Origin: Escherichia phage CLB_P1
Length of the DNA: 40,218 nucleotides
Strand: one strand, 5' to 3'
Sequence record: KC109329.1
Shown here: positions 1-5,159 of the stretch, in pieces
Position numbering within the stretch: the stretch's first letter is position 1
Layout: every line of letters starts with the position of its first letter
The notes under the pieces: generated by a model
Told to the model about the DNA's origin: nothing
What the model saw: the letters and a program-made list of their open reading frames with translations, nothing else
Database searches by the model: none
Made by a program: the position numbers and the translations under genes

Positions 1-20
1 CTTTGAGTCTCTATCTGTAT

Positions 21-107
21 AACCATAGGTCCTACAACCATAGGTCTAACAACCTACAGTCTCACTAACCTACAGTCACAACCATAAGACACTGACATCC
101 TACAGTC
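21..107 (+). repeat. Left-end array of ~15-bp-spaced short direct repeats (AACC[A/T]A[C/G][A/G]GTC units)
   Basis: Units at 21-31, 36-46, 51-61, 67-77, 97-107 read directly; analogous in position to the CCTAAAG-type repeat arrays next to the T7 terminal repeat. Confidence 0.6.
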
Positions 108-424
108 ATAGACATACAGCTAATAGACACAAAGCCATAGACTTAAGGTCTAAGACATGTTAGTCAAAGACTATATCCTCTTAGTCACTATGGGGCCGAC
201 GATAGCTTAATCAATATTATTTCAAATTACCTATTGACTATATGTCCAGACTATGGCCTAATAGCTTCCGTCAACACGACACGGCAGTAAACGCTAGGTA
301 ACTAGCAACGACTCACCGAGATGGTGACTCACAGTAGGTCAGGACGATAGGTTGAATGGTCTAGCCAGTACGGAAGATTGCAGAAGGAACTAAGCGTACC
401 GACCTCAGAGCTGAAAGAAAGTAG

Positions 425-453
425 TTGACAAGTAGTAAGACTTAACGTAGTAT
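425..453 (+). promoter_or_regulatory. Strong sigma70-type host promoter (T7 A1-like): TTGACA, 17-nt spacer, TAGTAT
   Basis: -35 TTGACA at 425-430, 17-nt spacer, -10 TAGTAT at 448-453; sits upstream of the first early genes as the A promoters do in T7. Confidence 0.6.
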
Positions 454-538
454 GTACCACATCAACGAGAAACAATCCGGTAAAGTGCAATATATAAGGT
501 GGTGCAATGGAGCAACGCCTATTAATGAGGGTAGCATC

Positions 539-772
539 ATGATCAACCAAATCAAAACTACTAAATCAAATGTTAACGGCAACGTTTCTCACTTTATCGG
601 TGATAACGAAAGAGGCACACCATACGCCGCCGTAACCGTGCAACCAAATGGCGATTATTGGTTTACCGTGTATGGATCATACTCTTTTGGACGTCCGGCG
701 CATGATAAGATCTTGCAAGCGGTTAAGCCTACAGGGAAGAATATTACAGCAGAAAAGTTTTATAAAAAGTAG
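539..772 (+). CDS. Hypothetical early protein (77 aa), first gene downstream of the host promoter
   Basis: ATG at 539 preceded by GAGGG with 7-nt spacing; the track start at 452 overlaps the -10 box and is unlikely to be used; no recognised motif. Confidence 0.5.
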   Translation: MINQIKTTKSNVNGNVSHFIGDNERGTPYAAVTVQPNGDYWFTVYGSYSFGRPAHDKILQAVKPTGKNITAEKFYKK

Positions 773-852
773 CTTGCTTTGTGCGATCTGTTAACTTATA
801 GCGGCCTGACTGATAGTCACTAACACATACTTAACTTTGAGAGGATATAACT

Positions 853-1341
853 ATGGAACGTAACGCTAACGCATACTATGAGCTGCTGGCTGCAACCGTT
901 GAAGCATTTAACGAGCGTATTCAGTACGACGAAATAGCTGAAGGCGATGACTACCACGATGCGCTGCATGAAGTCGTAGACGGTCAGGTCCCGCACTATT
1001 ACCACGAGATTTTCACGGTGATGGCTGCTGATGGTATAGACCACGAGTTTGAGGACGCTGGGCTGATGCCTGAGACCAAGGACGTAACGCGTATACTGCA
1101 AGCTCGCATCTATGAGGCACTGTATAACGATGTGTCTAATAGCTCGGATGTAGTCTGGTTCGAGGGCGAATACTGGGTGGTTGATGCTGAGACAGGGGCA
1201 ATCATTGAGCAGGAGGGATCACTTGAGGAAGCTATTACATGCGCTAAAAAATTCTATCCGATAGGTCGCCACCTGAAGGTCGAGGACATCAACGATAACG
1301 TAGTGTTCGACCCTGCGGCTGCTGAAGAGGACTGCGAGTGA
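853..1341 (+). CDS. Ocr-like anti-restriction DNA-mimic protein (T7 gp0.3 homolog) with a ~60-aa C-terminal extension
   Basis: Residues 1-100 align with T7 Ocr (YD.I...D.HDA.H...[34 protein letters not shown]); RBS GAGAGGA upstream of ATG. Confidence 0.8.
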
Positions 1342-1484
1342 TGGTAACTTATGGTATCTGCCAGTACCACGTCACCAACGCCCGGCTTATGGTCCAGACC
1401 GGGCAGTTAACCCATGACGCGGCTATGCGTCACCTGAAGGCGGTCTACGAGGGACGCAAGCGCATACACGACAGTGAGGATAAG
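1341..1484 (+). CDS. Small hypothetical early protein (47 aa), possibly gp0.4-like
   Basis: ATG overlaps the Ocr stop (TGATG); short ORF in the early-gene position. Confidence 0.35.
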
Positions 1485-1489
1485 TAAAC

Positions 1490-1615
1490 ATGTGCCAGAT
1501 AACTTATAGCAGTGAACAGGCGTTCTACGATGGGTGCTACGAGATGATGAAGCGTGGGGCTTGCTACATAGCTAATCACCAAAGCCTGACCATAACGCTT
1601 ACAGGTGGGTACTGA
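1490..1615 (+). CDS. Small hypothetical early protein (41 aa)
   Basis: ATG at 1490 with upstream GAGGA; short ORF only. Confidence 0.3.
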   Translation: MCQITYSSEQAFYDGCYEMMKRGACYIANHQSLTITLTGGY

Positions 1616-1685
1616 GTGATAGACGAGAGGTCATCGACTGATAGGTGGCCTCAAAGATTACCACTTGCATTAATAGGAGTTAACT

Positions 1686-1853
1686 ATGAAATTTACAGTC
1701 ATCGCACTTTACGTAACCATTATTCTATCCTGGCTAACGGCGGTACTCATTGATGGGAACGCATTACGACTAGGCTGGCTGGCAGTGGACATTATATTCT
1801 CTCCGGTAGGGGTAGTGCGCGGCATCTTGATGTGGATTGGACTGGCGGGATAA
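1686..1853 (+). CDS. Small hydrophobic (membrane) protein, 55 aa
   Basis: RBS AGGAG before ATG at 1686; product MKFTVIALYVTIILSWLTAVLI... has two hydrophobic segments. Confidence 0.45.
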   Translation: MKFTVIALYVTIILSWLTAVLIDGNALRLGWLAVDIIFSPVGVVRGILMWIGLAG

Positions 1854-1856
1854 ACT

Positions 1857-2054
1857 ATGATAGCTGCACTATTGATAGCCATAGGCTATGGGCTTATCGC
1901 CTACGTGCTGGTGAGAGACATTAACAAGGCGCGTAAAGTCTACAAATTAAACTATGTACGTCTGGGTCGCTGGACTGTACGTCAACCTAACGGGCGATTC
2001 ATGCGCAACTTAGCGAACGTCTGGGATATAGCAACACTTGGGAGCAAACTGTAA
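1857..2054 (+). CDS. Hypothetical early protein (65 aa) with N-terminal hydrophobic helix
   Basis: ORF tightly packed after the previous gene; no recognised motif. Confidence 0.5.
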   Translation: MIAALLIAIGYGLIAYVLVRDINKARKVYKLNYVRLGRWTVRQPNGRFMRNLANVWDIATLGSKL

Positions 2055-2380
2055 TGAACAAGTCATACGGGATTAATCTGGTACACTCTATGGACGCAGA
2101 CATGCAAATGTTAAGCCTACTGGCTACCGGGTATCGTCACGGAACGTCAAGTCACTCCGCACGTCAACAGCAGGAGCGGGACCGTGTACTACAGGCACGA
2201 CTCCGGGCTGAGGGCCATAAGTCCGAACTGATGTGTCTGGCGTATGGTGGACGACCAATCACTGATGATGGTAAACTTCTGGTCTCAGGCTGGAAGGCGA
2301 TAGACCAACGGTCAACAATCCAGCACACGACTCATGGTGACTTCAGTCATCTTCACGCTAACCCACTGATATTAAAGTGA
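2054..2380 (+). CDS. Hypothetical early protein (108 aa)
   Basis: ORF start overlaps the previous stop (TAATG); no recognised motif. Confidence 0.5.
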   Translation: MNKSYGINLVHSMDADMQMLSLLATGYRHGTSSHSARQQQERDRVLQARLRAEGHKSELMCLAYGGRPITDDGKLLVSGWKAIDQRSTIQHTTHGDFSHLHANPLILK

Positions 2381-2385
2381 TTCTG

Positions 2386-2408
2386 ACTTAACTATCACTA
2401 TAGGACTC
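2386..2408 (+). promoter_or_regulatory. Phage RNAP promoter copy immediately upstream of the RNA polymerase gene (ACTTAACTATCACTATA/GGACTC)
   Basis: Matches the genome-wide 17-bp promoter core at -17..-1; the initiating region GGACTC differs from the GGGAGA of the strongest copy. Confidence 0.55.
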
Positions 2409-2477
2409 AAGGTCTAAGACTCCAAGTGAAAGACCAAAGAGACTTTAAGTGAAAGACTAATAACAAGGACTTTAAGT

Positions 2478-5159
2478 ATGAGCGTCATCTCTATTGACAA
2501 ACACGACTTCTCTGATGTGTCGAACGCCATTGAGCCGTTTAACCTGCTGGCTGACCACTACGGGCAAGACCTTGCAGTCAAACAGCTTCAGCTTGAGCAT
2601 GAGGCATACACTGAAGGCGAGCGACGTTTCATCAAGAACCTTGAGCGCCAGACTGAGCGCGGAGAACTGGCAGACAATCAGGTCGCCAAGCCTTTGATGC
2701 AGACTCTGGTCCCTAAGATTGCGCAAGCCGTCAAGGAGTGGCATGAAGGTCAAGACGGGAAGCTGTCAACCTCTCGTCCGAGCGTAGCGTTCACCATGTT
2801 GAGCACTGAAGAGAAGGCCGTCAAGGACCGCTCTCTGCGCATCTCCTGTGAGTCTGCTGCGGTTATCATACTGAAGGTCATCCTCTCCAAGCTGGTCAAG
2901 CCTGAAGGGATACCGATTACACCTATGGCCTCAGCGATAGGTCGCACACTTGAGGATGAAATCCGATTCGGTCGCATTCGTGACAAGGAGAAGGAGCACT
3001 TCAAGAAGGTGATAGCTGATAACCTGAACAAGAGAGCCGGGGCATCATACAAGAAAGCCTACATGCAAGCGGTCGAGACATCCATGCTGGAGCAGGGTCA
3101 ACTGGAAGATGCGTGGGGAACTTGGAGTCCGACAGAAGCGGTACACGTTGGCATCAAGATGCTTGAGATTGTCATACAGTCCACACAACTGGTCGAGCTT
3201 AAGCGTTACGGTGCTGGCAATGCAGCTGCTGACGTTGAGATGGTCCACCTGTCAGACTTCTGGGTCAAGAAGATGACACAACGTGGGTTCAGCCTTGCGG
3301 GTATTGCGCCAGTCTACCAGCCTTGCGTCGTTCCACCTAAACCGTGGACTGGTGTCGTAGGAGGTGGGTACTGGGCCAAAGGTCGCAGACCACTACCACT
3401 GATTCGCTTAGGGTCTAAGTCTGCGGTGGCGCGTTACGAAGACGTGTACATGCCTGAAGTCTATGACGCTGTGAATATCATCCAGAATACACCTTGGAAA
3501 GTTAACAAGAAGGTACTGGAAGTGGTGAACACGGTCGAGAAGCTGAACAACACGCCTATTGACGACATCCCTCAGATGGAGCCACTGAAGCCTGAAGACT
3601 ATGCGGGTGAGACTGAAGAGGAACTCAAGGCATGGAAGAAGGCTGCTGCTGGTATCTACCGCCGAGAGAAGGCCCGGCAGTCACGCAGATTGTCACTGAG
3701 CTTTATCGTTAACCAAGCGAACAAGTTTTCTCAGTTCAAGGCCATCTGGTTCCCGTACAACATGGACTGGCGCGGTCGCGTCTACGCTGTGCCGATGTTC
3801 AACCCTCAGGGTAACGACATGCAAAAGGGTCTACTGACTCTGGCAGTCGGCAAGCCTATTGGTGCCGATGGATTTAAATGGCTGAAGGTACACGGTGCAA
3901 ACTGTGCGGGTGTCGATAAAGTCACCTTCGAGGAGCGCATCAAGTGGGTGGAAGACAACCACGACAACATCATGGCTGCTGCTAAGGCACCGATGGACAG
4001 CATTGAGTGGTGGGGCAAGTTAGACTCTCCGTTCTGCTTCCTTGCGTTCTGCTTCGAGTATGCTGGCGTAATGCACCACGGATTGTCTTACTCCTGCTCG
4101 CTTCCGATAGCGTTCGATGGGTCCTGCTCTGGGATTCAGCACTTCAGCGCGATGCTTCGTGACCACATCGGTGGACATGCAGTAAACCTGACGCCTTCCG
4201 GTAAGGTCCAAGACATCTACCGCATCGTGTCTGACCGCGTTGAGGAGGAGCTTAAAGTCCTGCTGGTTAACGGCACGGACAACGAGATGGTAACTCACGA
4301 GGACAAGAAAACTGGTGAGATTACCGAACGTCTCAAGCTGGGGACACGAGAGCTGGCCCGGCAGTGGCTGACTTACGGTATGTCACGCAAGGTTACTAAG
4401 CGCTCAGTCATGACTCTGGCCTACGGGTCGAAAGAGTACGGCTTCGCAGACCAAGTTTATGAGGACATCGTGATGCCAGCGATTGACTCAGGGTCTGGCG
4501 CTATGTTCACCGAGCCAAGCCAAGCGTCTCGCTTCATGGCTAAGATGATTTGGGAAGCTGTGAGTGTGACCGTAGTTGCTGCGGTTGACGCGATGAAGTG
4601 GCTTCAAGGTGCTGCCAAGCTGCTGGCTGCTGAAGTGAAGGACAAGAAGACTGGTGAAATCCTGAAGCCTTGCCTTCCGGTACACTGGGTCACGCCTGAT
4701 GGTTTCCCGGTATGGCAGGAATACCGCAAGAAGGATACCACTCGTCTGAACCTGATGTTCTTAGGGTCCTTCAACCTTCAACCTACGGTCAACAAAGGTA
4801 CGAAGAAAGAGCTGGATAAGCACAAGCAGGAGTCAGGCATTAGCCCAAACTTCGTCCACTCACAAGATGGTAGCCACCTACGCAAGACTGTAGTCCACAC
4901 GCATCGCAAGTATGGCGTGATGTCATTCGCAGTGATTCACGATAGCTTCGGGACCATCCCGGCTGACGCTGAATATCTGTTCCGTGGTGTCCGTGAGACG
5001 ATGGTTGAGACATACCGCGACAACGATGTGCTGCTTGACTTCTACGAGCAGTTTGAATGCCAGCTTCATGAGAGCCAGCGCGACAAGTTGCCTGAGCTAC
5101 CGAAGAAAGGTAAACTGAATATCGAAGACATCTTGTCTTCAGATTTTGCATTCGCTTAA
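2478..5159 (+). CDS. Single-subunit DNA-directed RNA polymerase (T7 gene 1 homolog), 893 aa
   Basis: Full-length alignment with T7 RNAP from recall (DFS...PFN.LADHYG, PCVVPPKPWTG, WFPYNMDWRGRVYAV, HGANCAGVDKV, SPFCFLAFCFEYAGV, IHDSFGT, FAFA C-terminus). Confidence 0.97.
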   Translation: MSVISIDKHDFSDVSNAIEPFNLLADHYGQDLAVKQLQLEHEAYTEGERRFIKNLERQTERGELADNQVAKPLMQTLVPKIAQAVKEWHEGQDGKLSTSRPSVAFTMLSTEEKAVKDRSLRISCESAAVIILKVILSKLVKPEGIPITPMASAIGRTLEDEIRFGRIRDKEKEHFKKVIADNLNKRAGASYKKAYMQAVETSMLEQGQLEDAWGTWSPTEAVHVGIKMLEIVIQSTQLVELKRYGAGNAAADVEMVHLSDFWVKKMTQRGFSLAGIAPVYQPCVVPPKPWTGVVGGGYWAKGRRPLPLIRLGSKSAVARYEDVYMPEVYDAVNIIQNTPWKVNKKVLEVVNTVEKLNNTPIDDIPQMEPLKPEDYAGETEEELKAWKKAAAGIYRREKARQSRRLSLSFIVNQANKFSQFKAIWFPYNMDWRGRVYAVPMFNPQGNDMQKGLLTLAVGKPIGADGFKWLKVHGANCAGVDKVTFEERIKWVEDNHDNIMAAAKAPMDSIEWWGKLDSPFCFLAFCFEYAGVMHHGLSYSCSLPIAFDGSCSGIQHFSAMLRDHIGGHAVNLTPSGKVQDIYRIVSDRVEEELKVLLVNGTDNEMVTHEDKKTGEITERLKLGTRELARQWLTYGMSRKVTKRSVMTLAYGSKEYGFADQVYEDIVMPAIDSGSGAMFTEPSQASRFMAKMIWEAVSVTVVAAVDAMKWLQGAAKLLAAEVKDKKTGEILKPCLPVHWVTPDGFPVWQEYRKKDTTRLNLMFLGSFNLQPTVNKGTKKELDKHKQESGISPNFVHSQDGSHLRKTVVHTHRKYGVMSFAVIHDSFGTIPADAEYLFRGVRETMVETYRDNDVLLDFYEQFECQLHESQRDKLPELPKKGKLNIEDILSSDFAFA

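Follow-up and report, generated by a model that had tools for sequence, protein, structure and literature searches.

The first ~850 bp of the bacteriophage T7 genome enter the cell independently of transcription; the remainder is pulled in by host RNA polymerase. Its gene 0.3, whose translation is stimulated by RNase III cleavage, encodes Ocr, a strongly acidic DNA mimic that covers type I restriction-modification (R-M) and BREX systems, and further small proteins of classes I and II (gp0.4, gp2 and gp5.7) are host-takeover binders. In Kayfunaviruses such as K1F, a gene of similar size to the one described here, gp0.2 (81 aa), usually occupies the interval between the early promoter and Ocr, and its function is likewise unassigned. 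A varying accessory slot near conserved flanks is the signature described for counter-defence regions (bioRxiv 10.1101/2023.04.06.535777). The gene compared here with these systems belongs to Escherichia phage CLB_P1, a T7-like podophage of the genus Kayfunavirus that targets the O104 O-antigen of E. coli 55989 (PMC11990801). Positions refer to the window, the whole stretch of 40,218 nucleotides (KC109329.1) that was analyzed.

ORF 539-772 comprises 77 codons from ATG (539-541) to TAG (770-772), with a GAGGG ribosome-binding site (RBS) at 527-531 and a 7-nt spacer (532-538) before the ATG (Table 1). It is placed in the class I region, with the RNA polymerase gene downstream at 2478-5159, and the next ORF (853-1341) matches PF08684. 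The original prediction had described a 77-aa ORF with a GAGGG RBS at 7-nt spacing, the first ORF behind a strong host-type promoter at 425-453 and ahead of an Ocr-like gene; all of its coordinates were confirmed, the ORF list of the window contains no plus-strand ORF of at least 25 aa upstream of 452, and the promoter is both the best-scoring site in 1-2600 and conserved in four relatives.

Table 1. Positions of features in the early region of CLB_P1, numbered from the first base of the window.
Feature	Position	Strand	Basis or remark
Host-type (sigma-70) early promoter TTGACA-17-TAGTAT, native Kayfunavirus	425-453	+	10/12 positions; homologous in relatives
Foreign 5' leader with stem-loop 497-520 (AGGUGGUGC...GCAACGCCU) and RBS GAGGG (527-531)	475-538	+	Stephanstirmvirinae intergenic element
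CDS, 77-aa soluble basic protein (pI 9.65), phrog_9227	539-772	+	NCBI name CLBP1_0.15
3' flank co-transferred with the gene	773-801	+	761-801 aligns to phiWec186 L001:6223-6263
Native Ocr leader: orphaned 3' arm of hairpin, 806-824 (CTGACTGATAGTCACTAAC), and Ocr RBS	802-852	+	Relatives, folding
Ocr-like anti-restriction gene, 162 aa, next on the same early transcript	853-1341	+	PF08684, E 5.3e-31; phrog_2568, E 1.2e-52

The longest open frame of this ORF starts at ATG 452, and NCBI CLBP1_0.15 is annotated as 106 aa from there. Because ATG 452 overlaps the -10 hexamer (448-453), and because all homologs of the 77-aa protein begin at the methionine of MI(E/N)QIK, the true start is probably ATG 539 and the public 106-aa start is probably too long. 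The N-terminal 29 residues of the annotated CLBP1_0.15 (452-538) are probably not translated. A practical gain is the correction of the start codon in the public annotation.

The protein matches phrog_9227 (E 2.5e-46), residues 1-77 aligning to profile positions 1-76/77, and homologs were found with tblastn in 223 phage records. Pairwise dN/dS values of the gene range from 0.045 to 0.18, a sign of strong purifying selection; comparison with the Phapecoctavirus copy gives 0.045 (4.7 non-synonymous and 20.3 synonymous differences), and comparisons with copies in other genera give 0.06-0.18. Given the phrog_9227 match, the homologs and the low dN/dS, comparison of the sequences indicates that ORF 539-772 is a real gene, beyond chance. 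Iterated searches of 5.8 billion proteins returned ~30 clusters of 74-95 aa, and an exhaustive HMM search of 1.84 billion representatives (30 matches) added distant family members of 67-88 aa. The long matches of the latter search (409-2256 aa) were rejected; they are Ig-like/invasin repeat surface proteins with repeat-summed noise on the GDYW-T-V hairpin.

The promoter scan of 1-2600 had 425-453 as its best sigma-70-like site and showed no overall enrichment over shuffled sequence (3 found vs 4.2 expected); the promoter is credible because its sequence and position are kept in K1F, PH1061, EPr2 and T147P5 (homology 409-465/481). Transcription would start at about 460. With this promoter and RBS, the 77-aa gene would be read by host RNA polymerase as the very first phage product. 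If CLB_P1 DNA enters as that of T7 does, the promoter and the whole ORF (end 772) would be inside the cell before Ocr (start 853), and by this analogy the 77-aa protein would be made before the Ocr gene has entered. Rfam had no match in window 1-2500. Upstream, at 157-290, the ORF of K1F gp0.1 is split by a frameshift in CLB_P1: frame 1 from 157 reads MLVKDYILLVTMGPTIA to a stop, and the conserved remainder, DDSLINIISNYLLTICPDYGLIASVNTTRQ to a stop, is in another frame, from 198. Either gp0.1 is a pseudogene in CLB_P1, or it is no real gene and its DNA is conserved for another reason.

The original prediction had taken the gene as native to the phage family, which does not hold: it is a myophage-derived insert, and a single T7-like record carries it. 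Among the 238 records matching window 1-1400, only CLB_P1 covers the gene, which is absent from the ~237 other T7-like records, and with 400-900 as query the T7-like relatives align only from ~790 on. Window 538-801 is 88-90% identical at the nucleotide level to a gene annotated "hypothetical protein" in E. coli myophages of ~145-154 kb, the DNA-level matches including the phages Paula, PaulScherrer, Nernie and phiWec. The 77-aa protein is 96% (aa) and its gene ~88-90% (nt) identical to Phapecoctavirus genes; phiWec186 is classified in Stephanstirmvirinae, Phapecoctavirus. The G+C content of the gene is 41% (GC3 42%) in a phage of 50%, and donor copies have 39-42%; for comparison, the GC/GC3 values are 51/56% for Ocr and 53/63% for the RNA polymerase gene. 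Over positions 400-900 and 1-1400 the sequence agrees 100% with Kayfunavirus CLBP1 (OZ035730.1), apparently a separate deposit of the same phage, and this identity over both junctions argues against an assembly chimera.

These alignments show ~475-801 to be a foreign early-gene cassette made up of leader, RBS, 77-aa ORF and 29 nt of 3' flank. It was captured by short-homology recombination from a large E. coli myophage of the Stephanstirmvirinae type. The leader (~475-541) has 81-84% identity to an intergenic promoter/leader element of Stephanstirmvirinae, e.g. phiWec186 L001:3571-3638; the RBS stretch ATTAATGAGGGTAGCATCATG (21 nt) is identical between the two, folding gives a comparable stem-loop in the phiWec186 element, and sequence comparison did not find the leader (475-538) in Kayfunavirus relatives. 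Because this element in phiWec186 lies 2.4 kb from the gene, ahead of a different small ORF, a real, still unsampled donor probably had the leader directly before the gene. The left recombination junction falls within ~466-481, as Kayfunavirus homology runs past the promoter to ~465-481. At the right junction, the match to the donor extends as far as 801, 29 nt beyond the stop codon, and Kayfunavirus homology is back at 790-796; the microhomology ACTTATAG (794-801) is common to donor-type and Kayfunavirus sequences. The mapped junctions, one at the promoter-proximal leader and the other in a hairpin loop, offer a clean case of short-homology cassette capture.

That loop belongs to the hairpin that precedes Ocr in relatives. 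In K1F the hairpin (L002:1020-1113) folds with -26.9 kcal/mol, and there is another copy ahead of gp0.2. The equivalent region of CLB_P1 (775-852) reaches -10.5 kcal/mol, a weak fold because the insertion replaced the 5' arm and left the 3' arm alone. By position, K1F-type hairpins are probably RNase III sites like those of T7. With the 5' arm lost, the new gene and Ocr are probably not separated by RNA processing, and Ocr expression or translation may be affected. In the CLB_P1 Ocr homolog, the Pfam ocr domain covers residues 8-96 only, and the ~65 C-terminal residues have no family assignment.

The slot between the conserved promoter and the Ocr leader has four states among the Kayfunaviruses compared. 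It is empty in PH1061 and EPr2, where Ocr comes first as in T7; it holds gp0.2 (81 aa, phrog_10124) in K1F, EcSW4 and ASO2B, gp0.2 followed by a 92-aa ORF (phrog_9817) between gp0.2 and Ocr in T147P5 (L014:971-1249), and the phrog_9227 gene in CLB_P1 only. K1F gp0.2 comes with an RNase III-like hairpin of its own ahead of it, whereas the CLB_P1 gene has a myophage-type leader, and gp0.2 was rejected as a distant homolog (BLASTP E 0.95, hhalign probability 1.5%). New here is the origin of the 77-aa gene as a foreign cassette from myophages, present in CLB_P1 alone among T7-like records, with both junctions mapped and in a variable slot; that this is a real gene, a foreign cassette and an occupant of a variable slot is, taken together, close to certain.

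Gene content thus varies between conserved flanks in close relatives, and the 77-aa gene is both horizontally transferred and dispensable: the remaining T7-like records lack it, and a Vequintavirus contig has a truncated copy. It resembles the genes of described accessory regions in being small, non-essential and exchanged, in a hotspot and beside a known counter-defence neighbor, and differs from them in that its sequence is conserved and not fast-evolving (bioRxiv 10.1101/2023.04.06.535777). The sequence is not among the supplements of the ~200-gene enterobacteriophage accessory screen reported there.

With T7 Ocr the gene shares a class I position before the phage RNA polymerase, a host-type promoter upstream and a small size; the two proteins have no sequence or fold similarity. 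In contrast to the acidic Ocr, the 77-aa protein is basic (pI 9.65, net +5), and the ocr profile (PF08684) does not match it at E values up to 1 while matching the neighboring ORF at 5e-31. An acidic DNA mimic of the Ocr type was rejected on this charge and because the family pI of 5.2-9.7 shows that charge is not conserved; the same spread makes a generic electrostatic nucleic-acid binder unlikely.

The family is found in Vequintavirus, Phapecoctavirus, Justusliebigvirus and the jumbo Asteriusvirus phages, and also in an unrelated lineage of ~43-kb phages. Members such as JES2013 ORF166, 121Q gp272 and muut gp125 share 57-96% aa identity, the same length and the conserved residues, and every phrog_9227 homolog carries the annotation hypothetical protein. 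The gene occurs in the majority of the E. coli Vequintavirus, Stephanstirmvirinae and Asteriusvirus genomes sampled; portal-protein counts of ~118 Vequintavirus and ~133 Stephanstirmvirinae records, which allow only a rough estimate of gene-less genomes, set against the 223 records and with the jumbo phages added, indicate that it is common and not universal in the donor groups. A Vequintavirus-like contig (L005:3001-3168, Logan SRR22355841) has a copy truncated to 55 aa and lacks several downstream small genes, and this natural deletion variant shows that the gene is dispensable in that Vequintavirus.

There were no copies in 5,426 complete E. coli genomes, the single PLSDB match (CP057073.1) is a 137.6-kb record of Vequintavirus-like size and identity, and the five IMG/VR loci are all from large myophages; the family is therefore confined to virulent coliphages. 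No tblastn match was obtained in phage records named for Klebsiella or Cronobacter, though such relatives are in the collection. Several records of the phage collection (MG065xxx, OR84xxxx and OR850875) are coliphage-type sequences labelled as Campylobacter, Listeria or Salmonella phages, and identical contigs occur under several host names, so that the host labels of these records are unreliable. Literature searches on the phrog/VOG identifiers and the locus tag found nothing, and those on Kayfunavirus and Vequintavirinae early genes found no functional data.

The 77-aa protein has no signal peptide or membrane segment (GRAVY -0.65). An AF2 model built from 27 sequences (pLDDT 90.9, pTM 0.80) has strands at residues 5-9, 16-22, 27-34 and 40-44, short ones at 47-48 and 68, and helices at 53-62 and 70-76; a model with 8 sequences only (pLDDT 60) was too poor to use. 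The protein is thus modelled as compact and cytoplasmic, with four antiparallel strands forming a sheet and then a helix, a short strand and a second helix. Conserved residues are G14, P28, Y29, V32, V34, G38, Y40, W41, Y45, G46, F50 and H55, and in the C-terminal part I58, P64, G66, I69 and T70.

The absence of a recognizable motif, already remarked in the original prediction, extends to the databases: Pfam, NCBIfam, PADLOC and PDB profile searches gave sub-threshold noise only (Vgb lyase propeller blades, a periplasmic binding protein and the Ig-domain F-strand 'G-x-Y-x-C-x-V'), and none of them assigned a sequence family. Foldseek against the PDB returned nothing below E 0.3, its top match, the uracil-DNA glycosylase inhibitor Ugi, being rejected at E 0.3, TM 0.38-0.41 and 41 aligned columns, and the BFVD fold search returned family members only. 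No characterized anti-defence protein was matched among PDB sequences, in Pfam or NCBIfam, or in the fold searches.

GNAT enzymes hold the pyrophosphate of acetyl-CoA with motif A (R/Q-x-x-G-x-G/A), which lies in the loop joining beta4 to alpha3. The 77-aa protein could be a minimal module of this kind that binds acetyl-CoA or another acyl or nucleotide cofactor and either acetylates a host target or sequesters a small molecule. Its loop YGSYSFGRPAH (45-55) does not fit motif A, with G51 and R52 varying in the family; it is about half the size of the GNAT core, the minimal GNAT-like YjdJ (5i0c) included, and lacks the acetyl-CoA-binding motif; and neither the acetyltransferase Pfam models nor a significant Foldseek match connects it or its family to that core. 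On the model, the GNAT resemblance is best treated as a topological lead and not as membership, and such a cofactor-binding role appears quite improbable.

The 77-aa protein, which has no catalytic or cofactor motif, may instead bind an E. coli component stoichiometrically, early in infection. This reading follows from the lack of a catalytic signature and from a gene that is early, dispensable, mobile and found only in virulent E. coli phages, a combination that fits a host-directed binding protein. The likeliest target would be some function of host immunity beyond type I R-M and BREX, the systems that Ocr covers, which would make this a counter-defence accessory gene. Counter-defence is ranked first because the gene is dispensable and sits in a hotspot next to Ocr. 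We hold this reading tentatively, at close to an even chance; an anti-defence role is plausible from the sequence, and the original placement of the gene in a region of host-directed early functions agrees with a slot that is variable among Kayfunaviruses and a cassette that was horizontally acquired. Against counter-defence, the family evolves more slowly than such genes typically do and is distributed less patchily.

Those same properties suit a general host-takeover factor, which would inhibit or redirect a conserved E. coli housekeeping component (transcription, division, a nuclease or a protease) and not immunity. It is ranked second because of the broad conservation and purifying selection: across four genera, the majority of large E. 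coli myophages carry the gene, it appears to be early in the donors, with its own sigma-70 promoter, and its absence from the Klebsiella- and Cronobacter-named records suggests a target at the level of the species E. coli and not of particular strains. Such a factor is nevertheless unlikely, though a serious candidate, as Kayfunaviruses can do without the gene, one Vequintavirus contig has it in truncated form, and the CLB_P1 slot, adjoining Ocr and varying between close relatives, has the counter-defence signature (bioRxiv 10.1101/2023.04.06.535777). The cassette might also be a neutral passenger, the tolerated product of an illegitimate recombination that contributes nothing to CLB_P1. It occurs once among ~237 T7-like records, and its insertion broke the 5' arm of the conserved pre-Ocr hairpin, a loss that has the look of collateral damage and not of design. 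The compact T7-like genomes quickly shed useless DNA, however, and here the reading frame is unbroken and differs from the phiWec186 copy by 3 residues against ~20 synonymous changes, the strong RBS is kept under the only strong early promoter, and the public OZ035730 record has the identical sequence; we regard a passenger as improbable. Least probable of all is a role in inter-phage competition or superinfection exclusion, in which the protein, expressed first, would block co-infecting phages: a gene that is expressed early and moves horizontally between virulent coliphages occurring together would suit it, but most known exclusion proteins act at the envelope, whereas this one has no envelope-directed or membrane-spanning segment, and the gene is absent from prophages of the E. 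coli genomes searched.

Whether directed at immunity or at takeover, the 77-aa protein could define a new family of small inhibitors that act on the host and are used by >200 large virulent coliphages, useful enough for a T7-like phage to capture as its first product ahead of Ocr; this is possible, at somewhat less than an even chance. The groups of rV5, phAPEC8/phi92 and 121Q hold hundreds of functionally unassigned small early genes, and one that moved into a 40-kb T7-like phage, into the first-expressed slot beside Ocr, and stayed intact is a prioritized candidate for counter-defence or takeover. CLB_P1 is a tractable phage in which to study this myophage gene, and if the family is indeed one of inhibitors, it would offer a minimal 40-kb background for finding the target and a first functional handle on the early-gene arrays of the rV5-, phAPEC8/phi92- and 121Q-like myophages.

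In the large phages, the constant setting of the gene is a same-strand array of small unannotated ORFs, and no annotated neighbor of the family gene was found in six phage groups and two metagenome contigs. Where CLB_P1 has a lone cassette, these genes stand in long arrays, with their own sigma-70 promoter or in small operons: the phiWec186 gene has its own TTGACA-17-TATTAT promoter (11/12 positions), and in 121Q a 12/12 consensus promoter lies one gene upstream, which indicates that the gene is early in donor phages as well. The early regions of L001, L010, L011, L012, L017, L019 and L020 were compared over ~3 kb on either side of the gene. Early small-gene families are common to Vequintavirus, Phapecoctavirus, Justusliebigvirus and Asteriusvirus, and their order and number differ; this suggests cassette-wise shuffling of early genes, often with one consensus sigma-70 promoter per cassette. 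At phiWec186 L001:3556-3740, an unannotated small hydrophobic ORF (MLEKIFTVAVVGLALSVGVVATMANMILSSHGIG) lies behind the leader element and has its own TTGACA-16-TAAACT promoter.
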